The notes under the pieces are model-generated. The model had not been told where the DNA came from. It saw nothing but the letters and a program-made list of their open reading frames with translations, and did not search any database. Shown here piece after piece: positions 31,175 through 49,858 of a stretch of DNA of 64,000 bases. This DNA comes from an uncultured bacterium (lineage in GTDB: Bacteria; Fidelibacterota; Marinisomatia; Marinisomatales; UBA1611): the NCBI GenBank assembly GCA_913020665.1, contig CAJVZI010000001.1, forward strand, positions 4,098 through 68,097. The letters run 5' to 3'. Each line of letters begins with the position of its first letter. Position 1 is the first letter of the stretch. The position numbers and the translations under genes were made by a program.

Positions 31175-31414
31175 CTACAATTTCCCTTCCTGATCAAGCC
31201 TTATAAGATCATCATACCCACCTATGGTATCATCATTGATTACAATTTGTGGAACTGTTCTTCCTCCTGTGATCTCGAAAAGGTCCTCCCGGCTCCACCC
31301 TTTTTCTTCTATGTCTATTTCTTGATAGTCTAGACCTCTTTCATGCAATAGTTTTTTTGCTAACTTGCAAGGTTGGCACCATGATGTTGAGTAAACGATT
31401 ATTGTTCTATCCAT
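31175..31414 (-). CDS. Glutaredoxin (GrxC-like)
   Basis: WCQPC active site, TVPQI and IGGYDD. Confidence 0.9.
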   Translation of the reverse strand: MDRTIIVYSTSWCQPCKLAKKLLHERGLDYQEIDIEEKGWSREDLFEITGGRTVPQIVINDDTIGGYDDLIRLDQEGKL

Positions 31415-34400
31415 TACTTTAATAAAAGCAGCTTACGAATTTCAATATTTTTTCTATATCTCACCATCACAAAATAAGTCCCTGATGACAATGAATGACC
31501 ATATCGATTCACTCCGTTCCAGGTAAAACGATAATGACCACTTACAAGTGTCCCATTATGTAGTATTGAAACCTCTTTACCAAGAATATCAAAGATCGAT
31601 ATTGATACTTCATCAGACATTGGTATCGTAAGATCTATATTGGTGATCGGGTTAAATGGGTTAGGATATGCCGGACCTATGTAAAACTGTTCAGGAGTAA
31701 TGTCATTATCTACATCCAAAGCAGAAATATAGTTTGAAGGAGCCTCTGTAGTGAATCGTATTGCGCGCTCATTCTCAAGTGGTGCTGCCCCATCAGTGTA
31801 AACATTGTTGAATACATATTGAAGCCCATAATTCTTATCTGGTGCCTCAATACCTACCGTAGAATAATTCTTTGTAACATCGACATCATCGATCTCTAAG
31901 TACTGAAAATCAATTACACCATTTCCGCTCTCTGTTGGCATTGCATTCTGATCATATAGAATAATTTCAAATGTCTCTTCCGTTACTTCATCATATCCAT
32001 TCAATGCTCTAGACCACTCAATTATAAATCTTCCATTTGAATCATCATGCCAAGTATATATATCTACCCATTTATCAATTTGTCCATCACCATTTGTATC
32101 AATGGTTTCAAGGTCATCTGAGAATGGAGCAAGCATAGCTTTAGGGCCCATATACATTGGGATGGACATATTCCAAAAATAATCTATATCGCATCCTTCA
32201 AAAGATGTCCATCCATTAGAACTTATAGTGATCTGATCATAGTCTCTACCGTGATATTTAAAGACAAATGGTAGTTCAACATCCACATGGTCATCATCAT
32301 CTAACTCATAGTGGGTTCCATTGGATCCGCCATAGTTAGGGTCTAATTCTACCCATTCGAATACTGGAGTCTGCTCATATCCTTCATCAGTATCATCATA
32401 GGCCCAATAACCAAAATTATTCGGCGCAACTGGATAATTATCCGCTGGAGGGATCAGTGCCAGTACCACTTCCTGTTCATAGAATGAATATTCATTTTTA
32501 AAAAATTCCACAAGAAAAGTAATATCACTACCATAGGAAACGTCATCAAGCGCTAAAATATAATTTGTCTCATGTAATGATGATTCAAATGGATTGAAAC
32601 TGGAGAGCTGTTCTGAAGAACCATTTACAGATAATGTAGCGCCCTCAGACAAGGGTGTTAATTGGATCGATACTTCTGAATAATTACCTTGAGTGAAATT
32701 AACAACAGATAGGCTTGGCTGAAATTCATCACCAGGCTCAGGCTGTTCAGTAAATTCAATTTCAAAGACAGGCATCTCAATATCTATTGCAAGATCACAA
32801 AGCGTGCTTCCATCCTCGCTATTAATAACACCAATCACCGCATTACTGACATCTGTTCCATATGCAGTAATTTCAATTCCATTTATCGTGACCGTTTCAC
32901 CTGGCTCTGAAGTTGGTATATTAACATTAAACATACTAGGTACGACATGATCAGAGAAAGCTATATTACAACTGATCGGACCTAGTGAATTACTTGATTG
33001 GTTTTGAAAAGATATTGAAATATCCATTAACGAGCCAAGCATAGGTTTTACAGAGTTGTCCTGAGTGCCAATATTAATATCACTCAAGACCAGGTCCTGA
33101 TCGGAATTTTGCACATACACTATTTCATGACCTTGAATAAATCCACCTTTATTTGCATAAATATCTAAGGCTGGCGTACCCTCAATATCCAATATTGTAG
33201 CATACTGACCATTTTTATCGCTTATGCCTTTTTCAATAAGTGCTCCATCAGTCATTATGCTTATTACTGCATTGGAGACAGGCTGAGAGTGCGGGTCTGA
33301 TAAACTAATATTTATAAAATTATCAACAGATGTTACAGCGCCCGACGTTATTGTGAACTCTTTTGGTGTGTCTAAATAAACCTGCAATGATGGATCGCCA
33401 AGAATATTATATACATTTGCATAGAACTCTTGGGCTTCTCCAGCACCACTTTGCGCAGGAAATTCTTTTGTTAGACCCCATTGGCCTGCCTGCATCGCTG
33501 GCCCGAGTTCAACAACATTATAGTTCAACATAGCATCATACATATAAGCATTGATGACATTGTTATATTTTGTGCTTGTATGCAGATCTGATGGTCCTAC
33601 AAATGCAACCCCACCTTTTGGTACTGTAGGTGTTCCACCACGCAATACTGCCTCTGCTAGACAAGGGTCAACATTATTTGCAAAATCATTTGAGTTACAT
33701 ACATAACTCATAAATACAGGTGTTAGCCAACCATTATTAAGGTCATTTACATCATCAACATGAAATTCTGGATAGTGCCAACCATTTGCGTCTCCCCATC
33801 CTCTATAATTCACAATCCCAACACCATTATCTATCATAGGGATTATGTAGGGTGCTCCCTGTTGTATTGGAGGATAGAACACAGTATCGACTTCACTGTA
33901 TCCATAATCTAAGAGCTCATCTCTTAGCCAATAAGATGTCCATTTGGGTGTGATGGGTATAGGATACGTATTAGCGTAGTTACCGGCCACGATAAGTCCA
34001 CGATCTAACCAATTCTCATCAAATGCCAGTGGATCTCTCGTATACTGTATTGTTTTTGACATTATTACTGCGAGATCTGACAGTGAATCGATCGAAAGTC
34101 TTCCAATAAACACATCTGGGATATTATCATCGCCTAAGATATGTGTATATTGCTGATCTGATACGTCATTCTCGGGTCCGTAGTAAAATGAGGGAAATTC
34201 TGCAAACCCATCAACATCACCGATCAAAAGTATATATTCTAACATGGGATCATCCATAAGGCGGTCCGTTATCATGCTTTTTATTTCTGCAGCTGACCCA
34301 CCCGCTTCTGATAAGGGTATGAGGTATACATCAAATCCTTGCGAATTTTTAAATGATACAAAATCATTAAGATAATTAACTACACCATCTGGAGCAATGA

Positions 34401-34593
34401 TCATATAACTACCTCTCTGAGGGTTGATCTGCGAGGGTAAAATATTATAGTTATTGGAAACCATATTCACAAATGCAAGGGGTATACGCTGACCTAAAAG
34501 GTCTTCTTTTATCTTACCTCTGAAAGGTATACTCTCCCCCAGGGTAAATGAAAATACCAGAATAAATAATATTAGTTTTTTAATATGATGCAT
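31414..34593 (-). CDS. Peptidase C25 (gingipain-like) protein with NIDO-like domain and C-terminal FlgD-Ig/T9SS-type sorting domain
   Basis: YILLIGD, SD..Y, PDVFIGRLS, NYRGWG, YVCNS, YNILGDPSL, LPF.F.Y.G..Y..I.ISSNGW, and C-terminal YPNPFNP...SSGTYF. Confidence 0.88.
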   Translation of the reverse strand: MHHIKKLILFILVFSFTLGESIPFRGKIKEDLLGQRIPLAFVNMVSNNYNILPSQINPQRGSYMIIAPDGVVNYLNDFVSFKNSQGFDVYLIPLSEAGGSAAEIKSMITDRLMDDPMLEYILLIGDVDGFAEFPSFYYGPENDVSDQQYTHILGDDNIPDVFIGRLSIDSLSDLAVIMSKTIQYTRDPLAFDENWLDRGLIVAGNYANTYPIPITPKWTSYWLRDELLDYGYSEVDTVFYPPIQQGAPYIIPMIDNGVGIVNYRGWGDANGWHYPEFHVDDVNDLNNGWLTPVFMSYVCNSNDFANNVDPCLAEAVLRGGTPTVPKGGVAFVGPSDLHTSTKYNNVINAYMYDAMLNYNVVELGPAMQAGQWGLTKEFPAQSGAGEAQEFYANVYNILGDPSLQVYLDTPKEFTITSGAVTSVDNFINISLSDPHSQPVSNAVISIMTDGALIEKGISDKNGQYATILDIEGTPALDIYANKGGFIQGHEIVYVQNSDQDLVLSDINIGTQDNSVKPMLGSLMDISISFQNQSSNSLGPISCNIAFSDHVVPSMFNVNIPTSEPGETVTINGIEITAYGTDVSNAVIGVINSEDGSTLCDLAIDIEMPVFEIEFTEQPEPGDEFQPSLSVVNFTQGNYSEVSIQLTPLSEGATLSVNGSSEQLSSFNPFESSLHETNYILALDDVSYGSDITFLVEFFKNEYSFYEQEVVLALIPPADNYPVAPNNFGYWAYDDTDEGYEQTPVFEWVELDPNYGGSNGTHYELDDDDHVDVELPFVFKYHGRDYDQITISSNGWTSFEGCDIDYFWNMSIPMYMGPKAMLAPFSDDLETIDTNGDGQIDKWVDIYTWHDDSNGRFIIEWSRALNGYDEVTEETFEIILYDQNAMPTESGNGVIDFQYLEIDDVDVTKNYSTVGIEAPDKNYGLQYVFNNVYTDGAAPLENERAIRFTTEAPSNYISALDVDNDITPEQFYIGPAYPNPFNPITNIDLTIPMSDEVSISIFDILGKEVSILHNGTLVSGHYRFTWNGVNRYGHSLSSGTYFVMVRYRKNIEIRKLLLLK

Positions 34594-36872
34594 TTTTTAA
34601 CAGCCTGTTCTTTTTGAGTTTGAATTCTAATAAAATACATACCCGTACTTGCTACAAGCCCATTATTTAGATCTAGCTCAATATAGTGCTTGCCGTATGG
34701 TAGATTATTAATGTTTTTTGAAAGGATATTTTGACCTAATAAATTATAAATATTCAATGTCGCCGACCCTCCAGGATAATTATCAACATTTACCTGAAGT
34801 TTACCAAAAGACGGATTGGGGAATATGCCATTGATACGCATAGGGATCTTTGGTGTACTATTTGTATTGGTGCTTTGAATATCTAGGTAGCTATCATAAA
34901 GAGAGAATAATTGCAATGAATGTAGTTCCCATCCTCTATAATTGACTGTTTGGTCTGAAGAGAACTCTAATCGAACTTTCACAGATGTAAATTCATCCTC
35001 AGATATGGCAGTAATTAGATCAGTTGTTAGGCCATCCCACTTATCACCGTGCCATGATCTTGCTCCTAAGATTATATCATTTTCATCTAGGATAGATACC
35101 TTTGCCATATCATGATCCCACTCGGTCTCATATTTGTGCGAAACTGACACTACAGCACGATTACTACCTGAAATATCAATTAGGTCAGACTCCATCCAAT
35201 GGGTTGAAAATAGAGTGTCGCCATTATCATACCATTGCCCTTCCTGAGATCTTAATGTATGGTCGACCATACACCAAGTACCAACAGAATTAGGCCAAGG
35301 CCATGACCCGCTGAGGTCATCGACCATACCAGATTCATAGGCGATAGATACTTCTTGGTCAGACCCTAGCTCAATTTCTTTCCTCCACGGTACGAATGAA
35401 TCACCCATCAGGAAGTCTATTTCATAATATCCAGCCGCCAGGCTAAAAATATTGTCACCCGATGATATTTGGATCTCATTTGTTTCAAACTCAGTACTTA
35501 TAGTCCCAGTCACTGTATTATTATCAAATGATTCATGGACTAATCTTATATTGAGTTGATGAATTGGGGCAGGCTCCAGATATATATCTTGATCAGTAAT
35601 AGCACTATTATTCGCAACAAGTGATATCTCTTGATCTAGAAAGCCTTTAGCCCTGAAGGAAAAATTATAGGTGCCGACATCTAGTATACGCCTATAACGT
35701 CCAAATTCATTCGTTAAACGTGGCTTTAAAACAGATCCGGAGTGTTCTAATACTTCAACAATAGCACCCTCTATCGGCTCGCCAGTTGAGCTATCATATA
35801 TAATTCCCGTTATCTGCGCTGCGTCTGTATAATAGCCTATTGCTCGATCCATAAGATATATCATGGCTGGTTTATTCCTATCAATTGTATCTTCGATCAA
35901 TAAACTATCAGGCTGAAGATTAGACGTCCCGCATTCTACGAGATATTGAATGGACCCTGTCTCACGATAGAACCAGTCATGCAATTTACCATTTCTTGAT
36001 CCGCTATATACAGATAGGTAGGTACTAGTGCCATCCTCAGTACTGATTGCGCCTGCAAAATGGTCGGCAATGGATTTCATAATTGCTAGGTCTGGGGACT
36101 CCTTTTGCTCCTCCCATTTCCACGATGTAAATACTTTCTCAGAAAGATTTCCTGATCGTGAACTATGCCACACGATAGAAAAAACAAAATCATTTTCTAG
36201 TGCAAGGTCTCTAATAGCAATTGCCTCGCCTTCAGAGAATGGTTCCTCGCCTTTATAGTAATCATAATGAGAAGCATAATCAGAATTATCAGGTTCAAGA
36301 AAAGTATCACCAAAGGCCCAATTAAAACCGAAGTTACGATTGAGATCTACTCCGTCAATATCGTTACCTATGGAAGGGTCATAGTCAAATAAACCATTCG
36401 GGAAAGGCCCATCTGGTGATAGGTCTCTTTTATTCTTTCGGTAGCTTAGATCTAATTCTTCATGAACCACATTCAATCCTTCTGGATTTGCAGTAGGTAT
36501 GATCCATATATCTAGATATTGCTTCAAAATATTCATATGGGTATGGATGCTTGCATCAGGAAAAAGCAGGTCGTTTATAAGGTCTAATACAATTTCAACA
36601 CCTAGAATCTCTTCTGCATGTACCTGTCCAACGAATAGAACCCTAGGCTCATCCTCTTTTACATGTGCATTATCGGATATACGAACTGCCAGAATAGGAA
36701 TATTCTCTTGGGTTGAGAAACCGATCGTATCCAAATGAAACCAACCTTCAAGCTCTTCTAACTGATCTAATGAATCAAGATAACTATAGATCTCCTCTGT
36801 AGTATGATATCTGCCATCCAATGATTGCGAAAATAAAGGGTAAAATAGGAATATTGACAATATGTATTTCAT
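34572..36872 (-). CDS. M14 zinc carboxypeptidase with CarboxypepD_reg-like Ig domain and C-terminal sorting domain
   Basis: Zn ligands HAEE and WHS, NPEG, RKN, GVDLNRNF, catalytic-position VECG, and C-terminal FPNP...IYNLLGQ...GMYF. Confidence 0.9.
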   Translation of the reverse strand: MKYILSIFLFYPLFSQSLDGRYHTTEEIYSYLDSLDQLEELEGWFHLDTIGFSTQENIPILAVRISDNAHVKEDEPRVLFVGQVHAEEILGVEIVLDLINDLLFPDASIHTHMNILKQYLDIWIIPTANPEGLNVVHEELDLSYRKNKRDLSPDGPFPNGLFDYDPSIGNDIDGVDLNRNFGFNWAFGDTFLEPDNSDYASHYDYYKGEEPFSEGEAIAIRDLALENDFVFSIVWHSSRSGNLSEKVFTSWKWEEQKESPDLAIMKSIADHFAGAISTEDGTSTYLSVYSGSRNGKLHDWFYRETGSIQYLVECGTSNLQPDSLLIEDTIDRNKPAMIYLMDRAIGYYTDAAQITGIIYDSSTGEPIEGAIVEVLEHSGSVLKPRLTNEFGRYRRILDVGTYNFSFRAKGFLDQEISLVANNSAITDQDIYLEPAPIHQLNIRLVHESFDNNTVTGTISTEFETNEIQISSGDNIFSLAAGYYEIDFLMGDSFVPWRKEIELGSDQEVSIAYESGMVDDLSGSWPWPNSVGTWCMVDHTLRSQEGQWYDNGDTLFSTHWMESDLIDISGSNRAVVSVSHKYETEWDHDMAKVSILDENDIILGARSWHGDKWDGLTTDLITAISEDEFTSVKVRLEFSSDQTVNYRGWELHSLQLFSLYDSYLDIQSTNTNSTPKIPMRINGIFPNPSFGKLQVNVDNYPGGSATLNIYNLLGQNILSKNINNLPYGKHYIELDLNNGLVASTGMYFIRIQTQKEQAVKKCIILKN

Positions 36873-36875
36873 GTG

Positions 36876-39800
36876 TTACTTTAAGTAAGTCACCTTACCT
36901 TTTTCTATTATGCCATTTGACTTGAATGAATAGAAATATACCCCGCTTGATATCTTTTGCCCATCAACATTCTTTGCATCCCAACTTATCTGGTATAAAC
37001 CTGCATTCCCAGGAAGTATCAATCTATCATAAACAAGATTGCCTCTTAGGTCATATATTTGGAATTCAACTGCTTGTTTATCAGGCATTTTAAATTCAAA
37101 ATTCAATTTTCCGTTAAAGGGATTAGGATAGGCGCTTTCCAATGAAAAATCATTTGGTATTTGACAATTATTGCAACTGTAGTCTGTAGAAAGGATATCA
37201 GCCTTCATAAGAGTCCTACCATAGTAATTCGCAAGATCTTCTTTTCCTGAACTTCTAAAGTCGATCCAATCCAAAAAATATTCCTCACCAGAGTGATGAG
37301 TTATATTTACATTTTGTTGTTTATGGTATGCTATACAAATTGGAATACCATTCATTTCCGTCGTCATCCCCTGACCAATGATATATCCACTAGCATAAAG
37401 GTCCACTCCATTGATCAGCAATGGATCTTCATTATAGTAGCCCCTTTCATCCTCCCAAATCACCAGAAATTCATTTTCCTGCAATGATGCTAAGCTAGGG
37501 TTGTATTGGTCAGTTGTGTCCACAGAAAATTGTATTTCATCTTGCTGTAGGGCCCCACTTGCAAGATCAATAATTTCACCGTAGATCTCAAAATCAGAAC
37601 CATTTCGATAATCTTGCCAAACAAGAAAAGCATGTGTTCTTGACTCATTAAACTCAAAGGAAACGTTCACCTGGTCGTTATCTGCTTCAATAACTGGTAT
37701 CCCCCCAGAATCCCACACTTCATTTCCATCCCAATCAATTGATTGAGCATATATATCTGAAAAATTTCCATCTTGTATCCAAACTGCGATCATGCCACTT
37801 TCATCATCAATAACTTTGACCTGTAAATGTCTAGAATCAGAAGAAGCATTGCTTAAGCTATTCCCATTGGGATTCCATCCGATCTCTACATTACCCTCTG
37901 CATCTATCTTTGAATATTTAAGAGAGGCTGCTGGCCATGCATCCTCCATCCAGAATATCATGTACTTATCGTCTGGAGTGGGTACCACAGCCATGATATA
38001 GTCGTCTCCATTTGAATCAACCAATTCTACACCCTCGCTAGGAAGGGTTATATTGCCTTCAGTATCTAGCTTCTGATAGTATACATCGTAGTTAAAACCT
38101 CTGCTCTCTGACCAAAAACACCCCACGCCATCTGGTGTCTCCACTAATAAAGCATTACGCATATCAAATACAGCATCAAGAGCTATACCATCTTCATCCC
38201 ATACATTATTTAGGTTTTCATCCAATCTATTTACGCGAATGAACTTTGGTGAAGAGGTCCCATCAAAGGTTGCAGTATAAAAGCCATTTGATGCTTTGAG
38301 AAAATATGGTATCGAAAAATCTGTTTCAGATGAAGAGTTATCTCCAAATGTCAGTTGTTTACCATTTACATCATCCAACTCAAGCTCCGTGATGCGCGAA
38401 CCATAAATTTTCTTTGAAGACCTATTATCCTCCCACACCAAATAAAGATCTTCTTCAGCAATTGGATATGAATGTGTATAATTAACATCACCATCCAGAC
38501 CTAACATAGCTGTCAATCCATTATTTTCCCACTCAGGAAGAAAACTTGAATTTAATTTCTGAACTTTCAGATCGATACTGCCAGAACCTTGATCGCCATA
38601 CACTCCAAAAAGACCATCTTGTATATTGCCAACCAAGATAGGAGCAAATTGATAACCTGAGGCATCAGATATTGCCAAAGGCTCTTCTATACTATAGCTT
38701 CCATCTGAGCTAATATTCTGATAGAATATATCAACATCTGGGAATGTACCTCTTTCCCAAATGATGTTCAGATCACCATTTACACCTGCTGAAAATCGTG
38801 CACTAAAATCAACATCTTCGACTGGATCTAATCGTATTCCATCTCCCCATTGTCTTTCACCATTTGTATTTATTTTTTGAAAATATTGATCCCCATCGAT
38901 CGGATCATCTCTAAGATCTTTCCAATTAACAAACACTTCACCCAGATCGCTTCTTTTTACTCTTGGAGCAGTTTGTAAAGCTTGATTGTCTGATATGGCT
39001 CGATCGTCAGTAAAAACCGTACCGTTTTCATTGACAAATTGATAGAGGACCCTTGAATTCTCATCACCTTCTTTCCATGCAATAAAAGAGGTGGTATTCT
39101 CTACAAAGGTTGCACGTGGCTTAAGTTCTTGCTCCTCTGTTGCTGCTATGGGGATACCATTCTCTTGAAATAAATTTTCCATCGAAATATTTAATCGTTG
39201 CCCATAGATATCTGCGTTAGCACCCTCTCTAAAATCAGCCCATGCAATAAATGCTTCCGAATTTCCAGCATATTCAATGGTCTTCGCATTTTGATTTCCG
39301 CCTTCAGTTACAATAGCGACACCTGTTCCAGGAGAAACAATTTCATGATCTGAAGAAATATGCGTACCATAAATATCATCATCTACACCACCACGCTTAT
39401 CCTGCCAAGTAACAAAAACTCCTCCTAAGCTATCAGTACACATATTAATGGTTATCTGTTTACCTTCTACCTGAGCTAATGCGATACCGTTTGGGTCAAG
39501 AAGAATATCTCCATTATTATCCAAATGCTGAAAGAATATATCTCCCTGCTCATCGAAACGATAATCCACCCAAGCTATGAATACACCTCCATTTCCATCT
39601 GTAATAGAGACTGGATCTTCCTGTCTCCCTGGGAGATCCGTAACAACAGCACCTGATTCACCCCATAATAGTTCACCATCCTGATTGATCTTATGTGCAA
39701 ATATATTTCTCATACCATATCTTGTATCAGACCATACAAAAATAGCTTCCCCACTATTACCCGGAGAAACTGTTCGATACCATTCAATGTGCACGCCCTG

Positions 39801-39884
39801 CCTAATTGGAGCGCCATCTCCTGAATCGAAACCAGTAGCAAATATATATGATATTAAGCTGGCAACGATCACCACCTGTTTCAT
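36876..39884 (-). CDS. Secreted multi-repeat beta-propeller protein with C-terminal sorting domain
   Basis: About 16 repeats of W.D.R....DIY.Q.....G...W..G, and C-terminal AYPNPFN...SSGVYF. Confidence 0.8.
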   Translation of the reverse strand: MKQVVIVASLISYIFATGFDSGDGAPIRQGVHIEWYRTVSPGNSGEAIFVWSDTRYGMRNIFAHKINQDGELLWGESGAVVTDLPGRQEDPVSITDGNGGVFIAWVDYRFDEQGDIFFQHLDNNGDILLDPNGIALAQVEGKQITINMCTDSLGGVFVTWQDKRGGVDDDIYGTHISSDHEIVSPGTGVAIVTEGGNQNAKTIEYAGNSEAFIAWADFREGANADIYGQRLNISMENLFQENGIPIAATEEQELKPRATFVENTTSFIAWKEGDENSRVLYQFVNENGTVFTDDRAISDNQALQTAPRVKRSDLGEVFVNWKDLRDDPIDGDQYFQKINTNGERQWGDGIRLDPVEDVDFSARFSAGVNGDLNIIWERGTFPDVDIFYQNISSDGSYSIEEPLAISDASGYQFAPILVGNIQDGLFGVYGDQGSGSIDLKVQKLNSSFLPEWENNGLTAMLGLDGDVNYTHSYPIAEEDLYLVWEDNRSSKKIYGSRITELELDDVNGKQLTFGDNSSSETDFSIPYFLKASNGFYTATFDGTSSPKFIRVNRLDENLNNVWDEDGIALDAVFDMRNALLVETPDGVGCFWSESRGFNYDVYYQKLDTEGNITLPSEGVELVDSNGDDYIMAVVPTPDDKYMIFWMEDAWPAASLKYSKIDAEGNVEIGWNPNGNSLSNASSDSRHLQVKVIDDESGMIAVWIQDGNFSDIYAQSIDWDGNEVWDSGGIPVIEADNDQVNVSFEFNESRTHAFLVWQDYRNGSDFEIYGEIIDLASGALQQDEIQFSVDTTDQYNPSLASLQENEFLVIWEDERGYYNEDPLLINGVDLYASGYIIGQGMTTEMNGIPICIAYHKQQNVNITHHSGEEYFLDWIDFRSSGKEDLANYYGRTLMKADILSTDYSCNNCQIPNDFSLESAYPNPFNGKLNFEFKMPDKQAVEFQIYDLRGNLVYDRLILPGNAGLYQISWDAKNVDGQKISSGVYFYSFKSNGIIEKGKVTYLK

Positions 39885-39920: not shown

Positions 39921-40955
39921 TTATTGTTCAATCGTAATAATCTGTATTCCTTCACGAGTACAGACTAATAATTTATCACCCCAAAAGATAGATGTGTAAC
40001 TGTATCCGACTGGGAATATGCCTTTTTCTTTAGGACCCGTAGGATCTGACACGTCGTAGAGAGCAATTCCTTTTGATCCAAGCGTTAAGCAAGCAGTACT
40101 TCCTTTAATTGATATGTGGTCAACAGTCAGATCTTCTGCAAAACGATAGGATACACTTTCCGAAGAAAAACTATCTTTAGGTACATAAAGAGCACCGGCA
40201 TCATCACACGCGACAAAAACACCCTCTGCTGTCAGCGCAACTTTTTCAGCATTACCTTCAGTATCAACTCTATTAATTAAAACAGGAGTCGCCCCAAGGG
40301 AATCTATATAGAATAATTCCACTCCTAATTGATCCACAGCCATTGCTATATAATTAGAGCCATCTGAATCAATTCCTAGCGGTTTACCTGGTGTATAGAT
40401 CTCAGAGCCACCATAAGGGGTCCACTCTATAAACTCTATACCAAATGAGCTTGTAGTATCAAGATTGTAATAATGCCATTTCATTCCATCATCATTATCA
40501 GCAGAATACATGACAAATTGTCCAGGTTTTGTGTAGAATGATACGAAGTCCTTTGTTCTTGCACTCATAACAGTATTCCTATAGAACAGGCTATCGCCTC
40601 CGCCATAGTGAAATATTTTGACATCATCATTTGATTCAGAGGCAAGGATAAGATCATTATCAGGGTCAACATCCACGAGCGCAACATCACTGAATTCTAA
40701 AAATGTACCACCTTCCTCATAACCAGTAAATCCAGCAACCATTGATTGACCATCAAGATCCCATACCTGAATCCCATATTGTCCAGCTGCAACAATTGCA
40801 TTATTACCATTCATACTGATATCTCTTGCAAATCCATTTGTTTCTAAGGTCGCATCAATCGAGATAGACCAGAGGTCATCATTATTCGGATCAATACAAC
40901 CAAATAATAATAGAAAAATGATAAGAGATAGAGTGTTTTGTTTAATATTTATCAT
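39921..40955 (-). CDS. LVIVD-like beta-propeller lipoprotein
   Basis: Lipobox LFGC and repeats such as A.G..GIQVWDL, GVELFYI and GIALYDVSDP..P. Confidence 0.7.
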   Translation of the reverse strand: MINIKQNTLSLIIFLLLFGCIDPNNDDLWSISIDATLETNGFARDISMNGNNAIVAAGQYGIQVWDLDGQSMVAGFTGYEEGGTFLEFSDVALVDVDPDNDLILASESNDDVKIFHYGGGDSLFYRNTVMSARTKDFVSFYTKPGQFVMYSADNDDGMKWHYYNLDTTSSFGIEFIEWTPYGGSEIYTPGKPLGIDSDGSNYIAMAVDQLGVELFYIDSLGATPVLINRVDTEGNAEKVALTAEGVFVACDDAGALYVPKDSFSSESVSYRFAEDLTVDHISIKGSTACLTLGSKGIALYDVSDPTGPKEKGIFPVGYSYTSIFWGDKLLVCTREGIQIITIEQ

Positions 40956-41973
40956 ATATCATATCCCATTTAAGCGTTAACCAAAATTGCATTTGTTCAA
41001 AACTCTTAAGATCTTTTACCCAATCATATTCGGAGTCAGTTTGACGAGTTCTATACCTTGTTGAAAAGGTGATATTAACAATATCAGTTATATTCTTTTT
41101 CAACCAAATATCATATTTAGAGTCTAAGTGGCTCCTGCCAGCATGCAAAGGATCATTAGGGTCTTCAGCATCATATACTCTTTTTTCTAAACGAGTGGAA
41201 AATCCTATCTCACTAAAGAAAGGAACCTTTTTTTTGATCTTAATTGGCGCATACCACTCTATTGTCTCATAAGAACGATTGAAACTGCTAGGCCTTTCAG
41301 GTAAAAAATGTGATTCATTGACCGCACGACCATGATTCACTTGGAGTGCAACATTACCGATCTTTTTGATCTTATAATTCAATTTAGCTTTGTAATAAAC
41401 TATATCAAGATCAAACTCTGTAAAAGGCTTTGAGTAATATCTTTGTAAATATCCACCACCAAAATTCATCCATGAGAGTTTTGATATCCGTTGGGATAAC
41501 ATAAGACTTTGATTTCTATCAGTGAATAAGCATGGTGAAAGTTTATCATTACTGATATCTCTATTGGTATAGTGCCTCAAATAAAAACGATCCAGATGAC
41601 GTAATGAATATTTGATATTTTTATAAGAACCCCATTTATACGCGATATCGAAGCCACCTGACCAATATTTCTTTTCTGGAGTATTTCTATAATCTGAAGA
41701 TGTAAACAGTAATTTCAGATCTAGATTCTGATATTTTGAATATATAATTGATTTTGTTGCTTGGAAGCTCAGTTTTGTAACAAAACTATCAAAAGTAGTT
41801 GACCCACCCATGATGCTGAGATCTTGAGCAGCATCATTGAATTCATCCTTAGAGAAACGCAAAACATTATCATCATAACCACCCGTAAATCCTATGGTGT
41901 AGTCTAGGGGCGTCCCTCCCCATAAATATGAAATAAAAAAAAGAGTAAATGCTATCTGTATAAATCGAAACAT
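40942..41973 (-). CDS. Putative outer-membrane beta-barrel protein
   Basis: Signal peptide, GYDDNV start motif, alternating aromatic strands, C-terminal aromatic residue, K/R-rich. Confidence 0.65.
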   Translation of the reverse strand: MFRFIQIAFTLFFISYLWGGTPLDYTIGFTGGYDDNVLRFSKDEFNDAAQDLSIMGGSTTFDSFVTKLSFQATKSIIYSKYQNLDLKLLFTSSDYRNTPEKKYWSGGFDIAYKWGSYKNIKYSLRHLDRFYLRHYTNRDISNDKLSPCLFTDRNQSLMLSQRISKLSWMNFGGGYLQRYYSKPFTEFDLDIVYYKAKLNYKIKKIGNVALQVNHGRAVNESHFLPERPSSFNRSYETIEWYAPIKIKKKVPFFSEIGFSTRLEKRVYDAEDPNDPLHAGRSHLDSKYDIWLKKNITDIVNITFSTRYRTRQTDSEYDWVKDLKSFEQMQFWLTLKWDMIYDKY

Positions 41974-42851
41974 TAGTAAAGTATAAAACGGGTAAGAACT
42001 ACTTTATCCCTATCCAAAACTTCTAGATCATAGCGATGCTTTCCTTTTGGCACAGTAAACTCACAAGACCTCCATTTTCCTGGCACCTTATCCATCCTTC
42101 CTTCTATTTCTGATGCTGAAGATCTTTCAGTACTGAAATAATAGGTACCGATGATCTTTTTTCCCTCACTGATTCTTAATCGATAGGATTCCTCCTGGCC
42201 CATAATATCTGAGAACTGAAGACGTGTCATAACCCGCATTGTTCTTTCACCATTAGCCTCGATCTGTAGTGGGAGTTCCGGACTGCATTCATAATAACTT
42301 ATAGTGCTATTATCCGTACGTAACTTCACAGCGTTTTTGTGTACCATGGGTGTCAGAATTTTCTTTTTCTTTCCAACTGACTCAAATTCCTTAGTAATTA
42401 GACGTATGAGGACGGGATATTTCTGGTCCTTATCTTCTAGAAGCTCAATAGTATGAGGTCCCTTATCTAGATTAATAAAATAATTGCCTGAATAAGTATA
42501 ACTATGCTTCGGATGCTGCACAGATCGGATAGACCTCTGCACTTTATAACGGTGTTTAACAATGACAGTATCTTTTGAATCGATAACAATAGAATATTGA
42601 AATGAATGACTTTTTTTCTTCTTCCTTATGACAGGATATCTTGATATGAACTCAATGCGACTAGGTCCTTGGACAGCATAATGAATGTTTTGGTCTTTGA
42701 TAGGATAATACAATCTCCTTTTACCATTAATGATCAATATTTCTTTCTCATCACTATTCTTTGATGGCTTAAGAAGTTTTGCTTCTAATGGCCAAGCTAA
42801 TAGTATTGCAATAATGAAGGCTAGTTTTCTATAGTAAGCTATCTGGCTCAT
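41973..42851 (-). CDS. Basic exported protein with two tandem beta-sandwich repeats
   Basis: Signal peptide (..PLEA|K), internal duplication (LYY..GP..I...R / SYY..GE..M...R; LDKGPHTI / VPKGKHRY), strongly K/R-rich. Confidence 0.6.
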   Translation of the reverse strand: MSQIAYYRKLAFIIAILLAWPLEAKLLKPSKNSDEKEILIINGKRRLYYPIKDQNIHYAVQGPSRIEFISRYPVIRKKKKSHSFQYSIVIDSKDTVIVKHRYKVQRSIRSVQHPKHSYTYSGNYFINLDKGPHTIELLEDKDQKYPVLIRLITKEFESVGKKKKILTPMVHKNAVKLRTDNSTISYYECSPELPLQIEANGERTMRVMTRLQFSDIMGQEESYRLRISEGKKIIGTYYFSTERSSASEIEGRMDKVPGKWRSCEFTVPKGKHRYDLEVLDRDKVVLTRFILY

Positions 42852-43980
42852 GCTGTAATAAATGCTCTTTTATCTTTTGTTTACTATGCAACCCAACAGA
42901 AAATACACTACCGCCTACGATCAAAAGGCAAATGGCTGCTACCCATACATTATATCTTTCATCTGCGTATAAACTTCCGGTACCTATTTCAGGGATCGGT
43001 ATCGGTGCAAATGGCATCTTAAACTGCTCTGTAAGGGGTCGAATATTAAGAATATGTAGGCCTGGAACATTAGAATTTAAAAATTTAGAAAATACACCTT
43101 CAATTCCACCAGGTCGTCCTATATCTGAGATATCTGATCTCAATACCACTCCAGGCGGTAATAGCTTAAGATTAAAACTAGTTCCGAGACTAGCAACACC
43201 ACCACCCACATTGATAATTGCCTTATAATCAGTTATGGGCTTAAAACCAGAGAATAGATCCATTCTATATTGAATATTATCTGCAAGCCTGTCTTTGCGA
43301 ATCATCTGTATACCATGGCCAGTAATATTATCTGCAATGATCTTTCTCCCTGCAGGAGACAACAAGCGTCCCATATCATTGCGCCCACCAATAGATGCAG
43401 CAAAACTTTTTGAAGGAATAAGGTCGTTTTTAAAAAGAATTGACTCCATATCTAACCAGGTGAAATCCACCTGATTTGCTCCCCATTGTGAAGCACCAAC
43501 ACTTGTAATGGATATAGGGTGTAACCCTAACGCTTTACATGCTGTAAGAACTGCTATATTTGCACCAGGCATTGACCCTGTCATTAAAATTGCAACTGTG
43601 TCTTTGGCGACTAAATTCAATTGGGCCATTAGATCAACGATCGCTGCTGAAAAATTAGGATCCAACGTGGTCAATTTAGAATCAAGATCACCTTCATCCG
43701 TTGTGATCAAACTAAAGGGGCTACCCACCAACCCTGTTTCATTTGGGTCATTTTCAATATCAATGAAGACACTTGATTCCATCCTAGTATCTTTCAATGT
43801 TTCCATCGCATTTTTCATAAGCCTAGCAGCCTTAACCTTTGCATCATATGAGCCAGAAACATCAATGGTCCTTATGCTGACCGAGATAATAAAACAGATC
43901 ATGGATAACAATGACAACAGCACCAGAGTAGAGGTCTTTTGAATGGCCGGTATGAAAGGCTGTTTTTTATAATTATTCAA
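42829..43980 (-). CDS. pgsW: Poly-gamma-glutamate system protein PgsW
   Basis: DPNETGLVG..S.ITT..G.L.SK.T..DPNF, TGS.PG.N.A, S.GAS.WGAN and INVGGG. Directly after pgsC. Start set at TTG 43980 after GGAG. Confidence 0.88.
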   Translation of the reverse strand: MNNYKKQPFIPAIQKTSTLVLLSLLSMICFIISVSIRTIDVSGSYDAKVKAARLMKNAMETLKDTRMESSVFIDIENDPNETGLVGSPFSLITTDEGDLDSKLTTLDPNFSAAIVDLMAQLNLVAKDTVAILMTGSMPGANIAVLTACKALGLHPISITSVGASQWGANQVDFTWLDMESILFKNDLIPSKSFAASIGGRNDMGRLLSPAGRKIIADNITGHGIQMIRKDRLADNIQYRMDLFSGFKPITDYKAIINVGGGVASLGTSFNLKLLPPGVVLRSDISDIGRPGGIEGVFSKFLNSNVPGLHILNIRPLTEQFKMPFAPIPIPEIGTGSLYADERYNVWVAAICLLIVGGSVFSVGLHSKQKIKEHLLQHEPDSLL

Positions 43981-44416
43981 AAAGGACTCCACCAAAAAGT
44001 AGAATAACAGATAGCTTGACCATTACAGCTGTTAGAATAACAACAGATAGTGTCCGTATGATCCCTTGTCGATCCATCCAATTAGCGATCAGACCAGGAA
44101 TAATATTTCCAATCACAGCTACCGAACCTATATCCTGGGGTAAATAAATAAAATTTCTCGAAATGTAGCCAAAGAAAAATCCAAGTATCAATGCCAGAAC
44201 TATTCGACGCTTCCCGTAAAGGAACATGACTCTTCCCATGCCCTGAATGATAGCCCATACCAATATAGCAACGAGAAATGTTACTATCACTTGCAGTGGT
44301 TCATGAAGATATAAAGCAATATAACCAGGAACAATAATACCACCTGCCGTAACTCCAAGAGTTTCGGATAGTACTAAACTAAGGAAAATACCTAAACCAA
44401 TACTGATCTCAACCAT
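43973..44416 (-). CDS. pgsC: Poly-gamma-glutamate synthesis protein PgsC/CapC
   Basis: GG.IVPGY.AL, LYG.RR and IIPGLIA.W..RQG motifs. Confidence 0.95.
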   Translation of the reverse strand: MVEISIGLGIFLSLVLSETLGVTAGGIIVPGYIALYLHEPLQVIVTFLVAILVWAIIQGMGRVMFLYGKRRIVLALILGFFFGYISRNFIYLPQDIGSVAVIGNIIPGLIANWMDRQGIIRTLSVVILTAVMVKLSVILLFGGVLFE

Positions 44417-45590
44417 GGTGCCTATACTCTGAGATCAATTGTAATATTTCTTGCCCAGCTCCAACTTGATTACCAATGGCATATATTAATGTATCATTTG
44501 GTAGTTCTTCTAAATGCGTTACTACATTAATAAGCGGTTCATCAAGTCCCAAAACTTTTACACTTGTCTTGGGAGAATGATGTACTAGTCCTTTTACGGT
44601 AGATGCGACCTTATCCCCTCTTATGATAAAGTGATCAGGCTTGATCTGTTCTAAAGTAAGCTCTATCATTTGCCGGGTTCTCAATGGTCTGTCTTCCCTA
44701 GAATTAAAAAAAATGCAGGTACCGCCATCAGCTGGATAACGACCAATGACAAATTTCCATATCTGTAGTGTTGAGACTGGATCATTTGCTGCCATACCGT
44801 TTACAAATTGTAATCTTTTTTCTTTTACATCTAGATTCCACGCTATCAAAGCTCCTACATCAGGCTGTACTTTATGCATTCCTGCAAGTGCAATGTCCCT
44901 GCTTACACCTGCTTTTTCACAAGTATCCAGCGCTACTGCAACATTTGAAGGATGCTCCATATAGGTAAACTGATCTAATTCGTCATCCGTAACTGAACTA
45001 TGATCTGAAAGTATGAAGTCAGATCCATTAGATTCTGCAACTTCTTCTAATATATTCGTTTTTTGGTCCTCTGCAGTTATAAGGATACCATTCAACGGGA
45101 TCGTATTGCATAAACTATATGCCACATCATCCTCAGTTGGTCCCATTTCATCTAAGTGATCCGGACGAACATTAGTAATGACACCGATATGCGACCTCAC
45201 CATTTGATGCTCAGCTATCCATTGATATTGAGGTTGTACTGCCATGCATTCCATAACCACCGCCTCTGGTTTCTCTGAGGCAAAATAATTAAGTAATCGT
45301 ACCTGCTCACCTATCGAGGGTAAACGAAGCCGATGGATTATACGGTCTTTTCCTTCTGCATCAATTACTCTTGGGGCAGTACCTGTGGTTTTTGCAAATG
45401 TTCTGATCCCTCCTTCTCGGAGCCCTGCTGCCACAAGGCGAGTTACGCTGGACTTTCCTCGAGTACCATTAACATGTATTCTGAGTGGGATCGCATCTAA
45501 AGAACGAAGATGATATTGAAATTCAAGTATGCCAGCAATACATAGTGCAAAAGCGAGTGTGCCAAGCACAATAAGGGGGATAGTTGCCAT
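44409..45590 (-). CDS. pgsB: Poly-gamma-glutamate synthase PgsB/CapB
   Basis: IHVNGTRGKSSVTRL, KTTGT, IGEQ, ECMAVQP.YQ, TNVR.DHLD.MGPT and N..AAND motifs. Confidence 0.95.
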   Translation of the reverse strand: MATIPLIVLGTLAFALCIAGILEFQYHLRSLDAIPLRIHVNGTRGKSSVTRLVAAGLREGGIRTFAKTTGTAPRVIDAEGKDRIIHRLRLPSIGEQVRLLNYFASEKPEAVVMECMAVQPQYQWIAEHQMVRSHIGVITNVRPDHLDEMGPTEDDVAYSLCNTIPLNGILITAEDQKTNILEEVAESNGSDFILSDHSSVTDDELDQFTYMEHPSNVAVALDTCEKAGVSRDIALAGMHKVQPDVGALIAWNLDVKEKRLQFVNGMAANDPVSTLQIWKFVIGRYPADGGTCIFFNSREDRPLRTRQMIELTLEQIKPDHFIIRGDKVASTVKGLVHHSPKTSVKVLGLDEPLINVVTHLEELPNDTLIYAIGNQVGAGQEILQLISEYRHHG

Positions 45591-45610: not shown

Positions 45611-48600
45611 CTAGTCTTGGTTATACCCCATGATCATCTGGATCAGAGATATTAGGTCCATAACATTGACCATACCATCACCATTGATATCACCAAAGAA
45701 GGGGTTCACCTGTCCTTCATACCCTAAATTAAAATCTACCAGCAACATTAGGTCATAGATGTCTATAACTTCATCGTAGTTCAGGTCTCCTTCCAGCCTC
45801 ATATCACTCCCACGTGTGGTGATCAATACAGCCGTTTCATCTGATAATTCCATTGCAGCATCGTGATAGGTATCATTGAATGTATACTGTAGACCTCTGG
45901 TCATGGTATGATCTTCTATACCAACTGAACAATAATTTCCATGTATCTGATCCCAACTATAAGAGCCATATGAAGTATTATTGAATTCTTTGTATTGCAA
46001 AAGTATCTCACCATCTCCAGTAGGTGTAATGTAATAGCTAGGATCGTAAAGCACTGCCTGGAATGTTTCTAGTGAATTGTTTTGATACGTACGAACCTCT
46101 GACCACTCTACATAAAATTTCTTCTCAATCTGGTCATGCCAAGTGTACACCCTACCTCCATTGGAAAGTTTAAGATCATCCCAGAAAACTGCTATCATTT
46201 TTGCAGGTCCACCAACCCCTGGCATCTGATAATTTCGAAATGATTCCAGATCTGTCTCACCCATTGCGATCCAACCATTTGAACATATACTGATCTCGTC
46301 ATACTCTTGACCATAGAACTTAAAAGTGAATGGTAAGCTTATGGTCTCAACATCGTCCTGGTTATTTCCACTATCAGTAAGCGAATTCAGATGAGTACCT
46401 GGCCCACCTTCTCTCGCATCGATCTCGACCCAATTATAAGTAGGAGCTAGCACATAGTTAATATCCTCATTATCGTAGATATAATATCCATAGGAATCAG
46501 GTCCAACAGGGTCATTGACAGTAGGCTCTCCTATTTGAACCTCAATGATAGAATTTGATGTATACCCCTCTTCGGTCTCAAGGCTAACGATCAAATGTGC
46601 TATGGCTCCAGGAATGGTCACATCAAGAGCACTTAGTTCAAAATAATCATTACCATTGAATGAAGATTCTCCAGAGTTAATAGATACCCAGGTTCCGTTA
46701 TCATCCAGTATTTCTATAAATGGTGATGCACATGTTATTGTACCAGAAACTGACACCGCATGTGTAGAACCTGTATTATTTAGCTCGATCTTTACAAATG
46801 AGGATTCTCCGGGTGTTAATACATCACTGGCTGAGCCCAATACATCTACATCTATTGCACTAAGTTGATTGCCATGCACACTAATATCTAAAATTCCATC
46901 AAAACTTCCACCATCACTATCTAAAAAGGTAACCAGAAGATCGAGGTCTGCACCATCATGCAGTCCATCATTCAATACCACAACAAATGGTACGCTTCCA
47001 TTTGAAGTTTCACCTGAAGCAATATCTCCAAATTCTACCATGTTTGCTGTAGTGTCAATTGACACATTCCCACTTGTTGATGACATGTATCCAATAACAT
47101 TTGTCGCATCTTCTGAACCATAGTTTTTTGCGCTGACAAAGATCTCCAATGTCTCACCACCATTTGCAATAAGATCACCATTACCATTTGATAGGCCAGA
47201 GCCATCATCATCAATTGTATAAGGCGATGGTGCAACTCCAATCGCTACACCAGGGTCATGGATCTGGAATGAGCTTTGATATGGGTAATGATTTTTCTTT
47301 GTAACCGTTACAAGAACCTCACCAGTCTCCGTAGATGTGATCGGCAACCTAACAGATCCTTGGTCATCAGTGTAACCTGATTCAAATATCTCATCATCCA
47401 TAAGTATCGTTACCCAGGCGTTCTCAACAGGGCCATTATCTTTATCTACTGTAATATCAATAAAATTTGATCCTGTTGTTATTGAAAATGGATGCGTTAC
47501 CGTAGTCATTTCAGGATAATCGGTCCACATTTGGAGGGACGATTCGCCCATCAAATTATTCCAGTGAGTAAATATATGGCAGTAATTATTTGGGTTAGAC
47601 GGGTAGTTGTGATAGAGCATCATCTTACCATACATCAATGCCGCACCAGGAGTTTCAAGGCCTTCCAATAAGGCCGCATAGTAGAAGCCCATATCAACAA
47701 TATTGTTGAACATGGTGTGCGTACCAAGTGTTGCTGTACCTACACAAACAACAGACCCTTTCGGGTTGGACGCTGTGCCTGCTCTTAAAAAAGACTCTGA
47801 TAGAGCCTCATTGCTTGATGCAAATGATCCTGTACCACATGTGATCACCGTGGCAACGGGCAACATAAAACCATTTGATGTGCTATTAACATTGCTGGAA
47901 CCAAAACCACTCACACCATAGTAACCTCTGTAATTAAAAAAGGATACACCATCGTTCAATCCGGATACCATTTGGCTTGGGAAAGAACCACTGTATACCG
48001 TATTCACTTCCTCAAAACCGGCTAGGTCCAGTAGCTCATGTATATGTTCATTAGTGATCACACATGATATACCAGATGTGTTTGGATCTCCTACCAAGCA
48101 GGCGCGTTGGAACCAATTTTCATTCATATAAGGATTCGATTCATAATTCAGTGTCTTACTTATGATCGTATTCAAATGAGAGCTTGAAGAAAAAGACATC
48201 CTTCCAATGAAAACCTCAGGATATACGTCTCCACCTTCTAAAGTTGTATAAGGTTGATCTCCCTCACCATTATAGCCACTGTATGATTCGGTCCAGGTAG
48301 GTATATCGTAGCTACCAGTAGCATCCCCTACAATATTGACATGCACGGGTGGGTTATCCCAAGTCTCGTATGCTTCTTCAATATAATCTTTTAGGTTATT
48401 TCTATTATTGACCACATTGGAAGACGAAACATATTGCACATCATATCCCACTCTTTTCTTCCAATCCATAAGCTCCTCAACTGTGCCTAATAGATTGCCA
48501 ATATTATTTGGTAGAACATAGAGTATACAAGGACGCTGGTATTCGACTTCGTCTCGAGACATTGAACTATAGTTCACTACAAGTGATTCATATAAGACCT

Positions 48601-49204
48601 CGAACTCACGAGACCTTTTTTGAGGGATAAAAGGCATCTCAACAGAGCCTGATTCAACCAGCTGTATATCAGCGTTTTGAATGATCGTTAGGTTTTTTGT
48701 TTGAGGGTCATACTGGAAAGGGGTCATTGACACCTGGACCATAACAATATCTCTAAATACCATTGGCTCAGAAATAGTTGCGATCTGCTCTGGAAAAGTT
48801 ATACTCTGATCATAGACGCTACCTTTGGTATAATTTTCAGTCAGCTCTGGCTCCCAGGTCTGGAATGGCAATACATCTACATTTTCAATGATCTCGGATT
48901 CGTGAATCGTGATCTCAACCTCAAAGGACTTCCCAGGTTCAACAGCATAGAAAGTAGATACCGTAGGGAGATCAGGGTCTCCAGATCGTGACTTGGACCC
49001 AGCACCAGGCATTTCAGGCTTGATATAGGTAATTCCATCCTGGATTACCTCTTTTAATTCGTATCCTGAATTAGAAAAAGTCAGTTGTTTTTCTACACTA
49101 GTAGCATTAAAAACACTGTGAATTGCTTCAGGTGTAGATGCTTCTGATGCAATTAAAATGCTAAAAGCTGAAATTATCCATAACCGACTGCATATTTTTA
49201 TCAT
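45611..49204 (-). CDS. Peptidase C25 (gingipain-like) protein with propeptide, Ig domains, NIDO-like domain and C-terminal dockerin
   Basis: Propeptide (G.P.LP...; P.QY.P), VGD, PEVFIGRMS, NYRGYYG, ITCGTG, NLMGE, and a duplicated dockerin motif GDLNYDEVIDIYDL...GDINGDGMVNVMDL. Confidence 0.88.
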   Translation of the reverse strand: MIKICSRLWIISAFSILIASEASTPEAIHSVFNATSVEKQLTFSNSGYELKEVIQDGITYIKPEMPGAGSKSRSGDPDLPTVSTFYAVEPGKSFEVEITIHESEIIENVDVLPFQTWEPELTENYTKGSVYDQSITFPEQIATISEPMVFRDIVMVQVSMTPFQYDPQTKNLTIIQNADIQLVESGSVEMPFIPQKRSREFEVLYESLVVNYSSMSRDEVEYQRPCILYVLPNNIGNLLGTVEELMDWKKRVGYDVQYVSSSNVVNNRNNLKDYIEEAYETWDNPPVHVNIVGDATGSYDIPTWTESYSGYNGEGDQPYTTLEGGDVYPEVFIGRMSFSSSSHLNTIISKTLNYESNPYMNENWFQRACLVGDPNTSGISCVITNEHIHELLDLAGFEEVNTVYSGSFPSQMVSGLNDGVSFFNYRGYYGVSGFGSSNVNSTSNGFMLPVATVITCGTGSFASSNEALSESFLRAGTASNPKGSVVCVGTATLGTHTMFNNIVDMGFYYAALLEGLETPGAALMYGKMMLYHNYPSNPNNYCHIFTHWNNLMGESSLQMWTDYPEMTTVTHPFSITTGSNFIDITVDKDNGPVENAWVTILMDDEIFESGYTDDQGSVRLPITSTETGEVLVTVTKKNHYPYQSSFQIHDPGVAIGVAPSPYTIDDDGSGLSNGNGDLIANGGETLEIFVSAKNYGSEDATNVIGYMSSTSGNVSIDTTANMVEFGDIASGETSNGSVPFVVVLNDGLHDGADLDLLVTFLDSDGGSFDGILDISVHGNQLSAIDVDVLGSASDVLTPGESSFVKIELNNTGSTHAVSVSGTITCASPFIEILDDNGTWVSINSGESSFNGNDYFELSALDVTIPGAIAHLIVSLETEEGYTSNSIIEVQIGEPTVNDPVGPDSYGYYIYDNEDINYVLAPTYNWVEIDAREGGPGTHLNSLTDSGNNQDDVETISLPFTFKFYGQEYDEISICSNGWIAMGETDLESFRNYQMPGVGGPAKMIAVFWDDLKLSNGGRVYTWHDQIEKKFYVEWSEVRTYQNNSLETFQAVLYDPSYYITPTGDGEILLQYKEFNNTSYGSYSWDQIHGNYCSVGIEDHTMTRGLQYTFNDTYHDAAMELSDETAVLITTRGSDMRLEGDLNYDEVIDIYDLMLLVDFNLGYEGQVNPFFGDINGDGMVNVMDLISLIQMIMGYNQD

Positions 49205-49857: not shown

Positions 49858-49858
49858 A

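Follow-up and report, generated by a model that had tools for sequence, protein, structure and literature searches.

Three genes located directly behind a poly-gamma-glutamate (PGA) synthase operon in an uncultured member of the Marinimicrobia belong to the PGA system, and we lean toward the view that they encode dedicated envelope components of a diderm-type PGA system, that is, its periplasmic and outer-membrane half. We analyzed a stretch of 64,000 nucleotides (the window; assembly GCA_913020665.1, contig CAJVZI010000001.1, positions 4,098 to 68,097 of the forward strand) in which the three genes, here labeled A, B, and C, follow the genes for PgsB, PgsC, and a protein of the family TIGR04332, whose gene is labeled pgsW. 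That A, B, and C belong to the PGA system is the most secure of our conclusions, because their linkage to pgsBC-TIGR04332 is conserved across phyla. The three genes probably serve to carry or hold the acidic polymer at the outer membrane.

The gene for B, a predicted outer-membrane barrel, and pgsB occurred largely in the same genomes of the Marinimicrobia. We searched 201 evenly sampled genomes of the phylum with profiles and found the barrel in 63 and PgsB in 70; 61 genomes had both. In 55 of these 61, the barrel gene shared the strand of pgsB and was 2105-3730 bp downstream of it, and in the other six the two genes were on different contigs. Two of the genomes that appeared to have PgsB only (G015 and G002) contained A-B-C after all, with divergent barrels that the profile search had missed, and contig ends cut one PgsB-only genome (G084) and two barrel-only genomes (G088 and G100). 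We examined 20 Marinimicrobia loci from many families, chosen for having both genes on one contig. The order PgsB-PgsC-PgsW-A-B was invariant in all 20; C was recognized in 15, and three more had an unlabeled acidic open reading frame (ORF) in its place.

The same linkage was found in other phyla. A profile search of 1.84 billion representative proteins returned 321 members of the barrel family (E<=0.001), and some of the distant members were named KSB1 or Bacteroidota by their sources. With six distant barrel members as queries, we obtained 174 confirmed stretches of GTDB species genomes and examined 80 of them, labeling genes by local iterative searches. These loci came from metagenome-assembled genomes (MAGs) labeled Bacteroidales, Lentimicrobiaceae, Ignavibacteria, Kapabacteria, Melioribacter roseus, Chlorobi, Gemmatimonadota, Electryonea, and others. 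A was labeled in 74 of the loci, C in 72, PgsW in 70, PgsB in 68, PgsC in 67, and a C25-type cysteine peptidase in 55, and PgsB, PgsC, PgsW, and A were present together in 64 of the 80, all of which had been selected by the barrel alone. Among the 16 loci without the full set, 11 had less than 2.4 kb of upstream sequence, four were short of one gene, and one (L036) had B and C with no pgs genes nearby despite 6.3 kb of upstream sequence. Four loci (L045, L066, L093, and L095) had the permuted order B-C-PgsB-PgsC-PgsW-A, in which B stayed with C and A stayed behind PgsW. The initial annotation of the window had expected these genes to co-occur with pgsBCW, and they do, within the phylum and outside it. 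We conclude that the conserved core is (C25 peptidase)-PgsB-PgsC-TIGR04332-A-B-C, and that A, B, and C are inherited with pgsBC-TIGR04332 across Marinimicrobia, Bacteroidota (Bacteroidales, Ignavibacteria, Kapabacteria, and a Melioribacter MAG), Gemmatimonadota, and other lineages.

The synthase genes in the window are members of the expected families and are tightly packed with A, B, and C. PgsB, PgsC, and the TIGR04332 protein are encoded in one operon, and each scored above its curated, equivalog-level NCBIfam cut-off (Table 1). The genes from pgsB to C are translationally coupled: neighboring genes overlap by 8 nt (PgsB/PgsC), 23 nt (PgsC/TIGR04332), 23 nt (TIGR04332/A), 1 nt (A/B), and 14 nt (B/C). 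The initial annotation had placed two overlapping genes directly behind pgsW; the overlaps and the position were correct, but there are three minus-strand ORFs in 39921-42851 rather than two. The TIGR04332 protein has a hydrophobic segment at either end and approximately 300 amino acids in between, which are presumably periplasmic. The symbol pgsW did not appear in the literature that we searched, and a literature search for TIGR04332 likewise gave nothing relevant.

The charge of A is conserved throughout its family. A has a pI of 9.74 and a net charge of +21, and of 84 homologues, 81 had a net positive charge (median +19.5). No more than eight positions were basic in at least 80% of these homologues, indicating that it is the charge of A, and not particular residues, that is conserved. 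Such conservation is compatible with a protein that binds a polyanion through non-specific electrostatic contacts, and we propose A as a putative periplasmic, polyanion-binding partner of the TIGR04332 protein. B is also basic (pI 9.24, net +10). In the genome as a whole, 175 of 1260 ORFs (13.9%) have a pI above 9. A crude heuristic selected 226 ORFs as signal-peptide-like; 25 of these (11.1%) are above pI 9, and A ranks third among them in basicity, but B was not selected. To find two basic exported proteins side by side is unusual without being extreme. The observations on charge from which the initial annotation had started were accurate: the runs IRKKKKSHS and GKKKKIL are in A and KIKKKVP is in B, and the basic pair stands against C and four large secreted neighbors, all of which have a pI of 4.06-4.47.

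A is predicted to consist of two beta-sandwich domains. The AlphaFold2 (AF2) model (pLDDT 85.6) has a signal peptide, which contains no cysteine, followed by the two domains, and the protein is all-beta. Both domains resemble carbohydrate-binding jelly rolls. Residues 160-292 matched folds of the carbohydrate-binding modules (CBM) CBM35/36/6 (Z 8-9; 8.8-9.2 for CBM35/36), and residues 21-157 had fold matches at Z 7.9-8.5, with the carbohydrate-binding domain (CBD) of BcsB at Z 7.9. CBM51 was also among the matches, and the overall range for CBM35/36/51 and the BcsB CBD was Z 7.9-9.2. Two tandem beta-sandwich repeats had been predicted. The two sandwiches are present in the model, but they are better described as two domains than as a sequence repeat because the two halves, when compared, had no detectable similarity (E=15). 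Neither A nor 11 of its homologues from other phyla matched a Pfam or NCBIfam family, a profile of A had no match at E<=1 among PDB sequences, and an ESM Atlas search with A gave no family other than its own. NCBI labels one close homologue of A (P0143) 'Euryarchaeota archaeon', and an Atlas cluster bears the label Archaea; these labels most likely reflect mis-binned Marinimicrobia DNA in marine MAGs.

B is predicted to be a 14-stranded beta-barrel, in agreement with the initial suggestion that it looks like a barrel. The AF2 model, built with a 38-sequence alignment, had a pLDDT of 82.5 and a pTM of 0.79. Strand 1 begins at approximately residue 23, directly after the signal peptide, and there is no N-terminal TPR domain. 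The predicted periplasmic turns are short, the predicted extracellular loops are long and conserved, and the C-terminal aromatic residue is invariant. The best structural matches (VIA) were CymA (Z 23.8, rmsd 3.3, 284 residues) and OmpG (Z 21.9, 244 residues), with Foldseek TM values of at most 0.64 to channels of this type; matches to the barrels of exopolysaccharide porins scored lower (PgaA Z 14.5, BcsC Z 14.2, and PelB Z 13.8). No Pfam or NCBIfam family was found for the window protein (E<=0.01) or for five homologues from other phyla, and a profile of B had no match at E<=1 among PDB sequences. Porin_OmpG_1_2 was touched by one of 24 diverse members of the family (E 0.073). A search among proteins of 602-2000 amino acids, which was a weak one, found no longer, fused forms of B.

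The lumen of B is predicted to be positively charged in the Marinimicrobia. We estimated lumen charge from strand alternation in the sequence, which is a proxy and not an electrostatic map. By this proxy, the lumen-facing residues of the window protein include 21 lysines and arginines and 11 aspartates and glutamates (net +10), and of 21 homologues from the Marinimicrobia, 20 had a net positive lumen (median +9). We propose that B is an outer-membrane conduit or anchor for PGA.

C is probably a beta-propeller lipoprotein, as had been noted for the gene that follows the barrel gene. C is acidic (pI 4.08) and has the lipobox LLFGC, and a lipobox-like motif was present in 60 of 82 homologues. The window protein scored 18.1 bits with the LVIVD family (PF08309), just under the cut-off of 20.2, and all eight homologues tested from other phyla were over the cut-off (55-102 bits). 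In most homologues, the lipid-modified cysteine is followed by acidic residues, which would fit a surface-export signal of Bacteroidota. We propose that C is an LVIVD beta-propeller lipoprotein and a likely outer-membrane partner of B.

These proteins could be arranged in a pathway that runs from the inner membrane to the outer membrane. PgsB and PgsC would polymerize glutamate at the inner membrane, and the TIGR04332 protein would fill the place that PgsA/CapA has in Bacillus. A, whose gene is always behind that for TIGR04332, would bind the emerging polyanion electrostatically in the periplasm and might handle the chain in a manner similar to the guiding of cellulose by the BcsB jelly rolls. 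B, paired with C, would then provide a passage or a fixing point in the outer membrane, and C would be its lipoprotein partner, in the position, though not with the fold, of AlgK, PelC, or PgaB. Overall, the pathway would follow the logic of synthase-dependent exopolysaccharide secretion with unrelated proteins and a polyamide cargo. A more specific form of this proposal, in which A, as a cationic tandem jelly-roll chaperone, hands PGA from the PgsBC-TIGR04332 synthase to a propeller-capped B barrel and the three proteins are an undescribed outer-membrane translocon for a non-polysaccharide polymer, is somewhat short of an even prospect.

The cluster resembles the synthase-dependent exopolysaccharide systems (Alg8/44-AlgK-AlgE, BcsA/B-BcsC, PgaCD-PgaB-PgaA, and PelDEFG-PelC-PelB) in its logic and differs from them in its parts. 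The common elements are an inner-membrane polymerase, a periplasmic polymer-binding element, an outer-membrane lipoprotein, a beta-barrel porin, one operon, and an anionic polymer, and A is like BcsB in that its domains resemble a carbohydrate-binding jelly roll. However, the polymer here would be a polyamide and not a polysaccharide, A is not a TPR protein, C is of the beta-propeller type, and no sequence family is shared. PgaA, BcsC, and PelB are 16-stranded barrels fused to a periplasmic TPR domain, and exporters of this kind have 16 to 18 strands; B, in contrast, has 14 strands and no fused TPR domain, its barrel occupying the protein from residue 23. The initial annotation had likened the basic proteins to AlgE and AlgK of alginate export. 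That analogy is sound for the secretion logic and fails for anatomy and family. AlgE is an 18-stranded barrel and AlgK is a TPR lipoprotein, whereas A is a soluble tandem jelly-roll protein and the lipoprotein of the set is C. With the wrong strand number and the wrong partner fold, we rejected A, B, and C as homologues of AlgE and AlgK. AlgE was not among the 50 structural matches listed for B, although absence from that list does not exclude a family.

B, as modeled, is like the monomeric channels CymA and OmpG in its size and in its 14 strands. It differs from them in sequence (8-11% identity and no profile match), and they are sugar uptake channels of Proteobacteria without a link to polymer synthesis.

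Like the Gram-positive systems (PgsBCA(E)/CapBCAE with CapD), the cluster has true family members of PgsB and PgsC. Unlike those systems, it has no PgsA/CapA, and TIGR04332 is in its place; clusters of the A/B/C type also have no gamma-glutamyltranspeptidase (GGT)/CapD. A, B, and C are without counterparts in the Gram-positive systems, as expected for organisms with an outer membrane. A PGA_cap (CapA-like) domain is present elsewhere in the genome, in an open frame of 1073 amino acids (contig C39:899-1777). The family is broad, matching seven of 14 control genomes, and no link to PGA can therefore be drawn from it.

Several observations weigh against the proposal that A, B, and C are the dedicated outer half of a PGA system. 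First, C was absent from four loci (L096, L098, L099, and L100) despite at least 5 kb of downstream sequence. Second, four loci of the same phylum have a pgsBC-TIGR04332 cluster without A, B, and C. Third, the electropositive lumen that had been predicted for B, which the proxy supports in the Marinimicrobia, is weak in other phyla (median +3, positive in 53-55 of 78 homologues), and the pI of whole B homologues ranges from 4.8 to 10.0. Fourth, the nearly invariant residues of B are mostly acidic, His, Arg, or polar and map to predicted loops instead of lining a basic pore. Fifth, the fold matches of A are middling (Z ~8-9), in a range typical of a common arrangement. Finally, what we observed is anatomy and genetic linkage, and it is from these that we infer production, binding, and passage or export of PGA.

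The four clusters without A, B, and C appear to be a second type. We examined four of the six remaining PgsB-only genomes of the phylum survey (G148, G032, G109, and G072; loci L107-L110), in which PgsB was low-scoring (232-257 bits). Upstream of PgsB, these loci have DUF6305, one or two GGTs (CapD-like), and an AstE/AspA-type zinc hydrolase, and PgsB-PgsC-TIGR04332 is followed by cargo of the type IX secretion system (T9SS). A phmmer search found a Glu-racemase homologue in two of the four. GGT and DUF6305 were found only in these four loci and in none of the A/B/C type. Diderm PGA clusters can thus be divided by their accessory genes into those with a C25 peptidase and A/B/C and those with GGT and DUF6305, and A/B/C are not needed by every diderm pgsBCW system because clusters of the GGT type carry none.

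The three genes might serve to retain PGA instead of secreting it. A and/or C would be displayed on the surface and would hold a PGA capsule, B would be an anchor or a translocator like those of the Slam/type 11 secretion system (T11SS), and the C25 peptidase would replace CapD. We consider this unlikely. In favor of it, the B-C pair moves as a unit in the permuted loci, the C25-type and GGT-type clusters were mutually exclusive in the loci examined (GGT only in L107-L110), and most C homologues have the acidic residues that would fit a Bacteroidota surface-export signal. In addition, C follows B in 72 of the 80 loci, and a lipoprotein gene next to that for a 14-stranded barrel is the usual layout of Slam systems (PMC5449769). 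However, all Slams in that paper have an N-terminal TPR domain, which B lacks, and DUF560 (PF04575) was matched at E<=1 by none of 24 diverse B members and not by the window protein. The distribution of B is also non-proteobacterial. Without these defining features (DUF560 and the N-terminal TPR domain), we rejected membership of B in Slam/T11SS. DUF560 likewise had no match at E<=1 in the genome, which is weak evidence by itself in that the control genomes gave none either. Some clusters among the language-model neighbors of B have PF04575 SlipAM in 19-50% of their members, but this is a lead only, and profile searches confirmed neither the SlipAM nor the BBP2_2 lead from the ESM Atlas; a literature search for PF10082/EpsL found nothing relevant. 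A further point against retention is that B stays with pgsBCW-A in the four loci where C is missing.

The conserved residues of B raise the alternative that it is an outer-membrane enzyme or gated receptor, with a cluster of Asp, Glu, His, and Arg residues in its loops that trims, modifies, or attaches PGA. Such a B would be comparable in principle to the barrel enzymes OmpT and PagP. Across the family, Y33, D34, N36, L38, S41, D62, D137, E186, D188, D274, H277, G279, R280, R310, and K323 are nearly invariant; the acidic, His, and Arg residues include those of the loop motifs GYDxN..S (after strand 1) and DPxHxGR (between strands 11 and 12), and the basic lumen residues are less conserved than these loop residues. 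However, B has 14 strands and its closest folds, CymA and OmpG, are wide channels, it has no Pfam similarity to a known family of barrel enzymes, and the conserved loops may merely form a constriction or gate. We regard an enzyme or receptor as a rather improbable account of B. The location of the invariant residues in predicted loops suggests not a simple basic tube but a conserved structure at one rim of B, such as a gate, a constriction, or an active site. These loop residues may serve in gating, metal binding, or catalysis.

Uptake or recycling is, in our view, a slightly poorer explanation still. In this reading, the neighboring C25 and M14 peptidases would release gamma-glutamyl oligomers or peptides, the barrel would import them, and A would be the periplasmic protein that binds them. 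The cluster is indeed rich in secreted peptidases, and CymA and OmpG are uptake channels. In opposition to this, the coupling that spans phyla is to synthase genes, with A directly behind TIGR04332, neither the M14 gene (7 of 80 loci) nor the genes for T9SS cargo are kept outside the Marinimicrobia, and the conserved core contains no inner-membrane importer. That A, B, and C are chance neighbors unrelated to PGA is barely credible: L036 does have B and C away from pgs genes, but the synteny is kept across phyla and survives permutation of the gene order.

The genes around the conserved core differ in how widely they are kept, and the coordinates of all of these features are given in Table 1.

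Table 1. Genes of the PGA cluster and its surroundings in the window
Feature	Coordinates	Strand	Characteristics
Three acidic T9SS-sorted proteins	31414-39884	minus	1002-aa protein, M14 carboxypeptidase, second C25 peptidase
Second C25 peptidase (gingipain/PorU-family), T9SS sorting domain	31414-34593	minus	
C	39921-40955	minus	344 aa, acidic lipoprotein, LVIVD-repeat beta-propeller type
B	40942-41973	minus	343 aa, predicted outer-membrane 14-stranded beta-barrel
A	41973-42851	minus	292 aa, secreted, strongly basic, two beta-sandwich (jelly-roll, CBM-like) domains
TIGR04332 'poly-gamma-glutamate system protein' (pgsW of the initial annotation)	42829-43995	minus	NCBIfam 286.4 bits, cut-off 100
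PgsC	43973-44416	minus	TIGR04011 118.4 bits, cut-off 96.45; Pfam CapC
PgsB, poly-gamma-glutamate synthase	44409-45590	minus	TIGR04012 414.3 bits, cut-off 222.7
C25 (gingipain-family) cysteine peptidase	45611-49204	minus	propeptide, Ig-like domain, C-terminal dockerin (Pfam)
GspE/PilB-like ATPase, GspF/PilC-like platform protein, prepilin-peptidase-like genes	49213-52827	minus	labels read from translations

Two large C25 peptidases flank the module, one with a dockerin and the other with a T9SS sorting domain. A C25-like ORF was kept in all 20 Marinimicrobia loci and in 55 of the 80 loci of other phyla. Because the C25 peptidase directly upstream of pgsB is kept across phyla, its position suggests a role in processing or attaching PGA in place of CapD. 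The three T9SS-sorted proteins downstream, a 1002-amino-acid protein whose only family is the T9SS C-terminal sorting domain, an M14 carboxypeptidase, and the second C25 peptidase, are conserved in the Marinimicrobia and mostly absent from other phyla. The genes on the other side, for GspE, GspF, and a prepilin peptidase, were considered as parts of the module and rejected: GspF and prepilin-peptidase homologues adjoin the PGA genes only in closer relatives, and these genes are therefore probably outside the module. In Bacteroidota loci (L055:12059-13198, L087:12175-13287, and many others), the cassette is followed by a gene for a basic membrane protein of approximately 370 amino acids of the HGSNAT_cat/Acyl_transf_3 acyltransferase family, and then by one for a protein of approximately 415 amino acids. 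The acyltransferase-family protein could carry out a polymer-modifying step.

All genes between 49204 and 31414 may be transcribed as a single unit. Of the terminator-like hairpins in this region, the strongest (31119-31146, minus strand, 12 pairs) is just past the last C25 gene. A scan for promoters and terminators was uninformative, with counts the same as in shuffled sequence. In marine metatranscriptome libraries from three studies, near-identical contigs cover the cluster and bridge the A/PgsW, PgsC/PgsB, and B/C junctions and that between C and the next gene. These contigs are a weak sign that the cluster is expressed, because DNA carry-over and separate transcripts are possible, and they give neither the strand nor a single transcript.

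The synthesis of PGA has been worked out in Gram-positive bacilli. Our literature searches, which did not extend to subscription journals or to the original Fusobacterium paper, found nothing on transfer of PGA across or onto the outer membrane or on outer-membrane components for PGA, and no report that Marinimicrobia, Ignavibacteria, or Bacteroidota make PGA. A 2016 review (PMC4928254) names Fusobacterium nucleatum among the producers of PGA, and the term 'outer membrane' occurs in it 0 times.

The families of A and B are new, and the system is a variant of a known secretion logic. They provide concrete candidates for the outer-membrane step of PGA: two families without a Pfam, NCBIfam, or PDB relative, tied to pgsBC, with one of the loci in a MAG labeled as the species Melioribacter roseus. 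If the translocon proposal is correct, PGA secretion of the diderm type would be widespread in the Fibrobacteres-Chlorobi-Bacteroidetes (FCB) group, including the abundant ocean clade Marinimicrobia/SAR406, and these bacteria would coat themselves with polyglutamate or shed the polymer into sea water. It may also be that marine Marinimicrobia and many Bacteroidota commonly have PGA as a surface polymer or in dissolved form, which would be relevant to the biology of capsules, to attachment to particles, and to organic matter in the sea.

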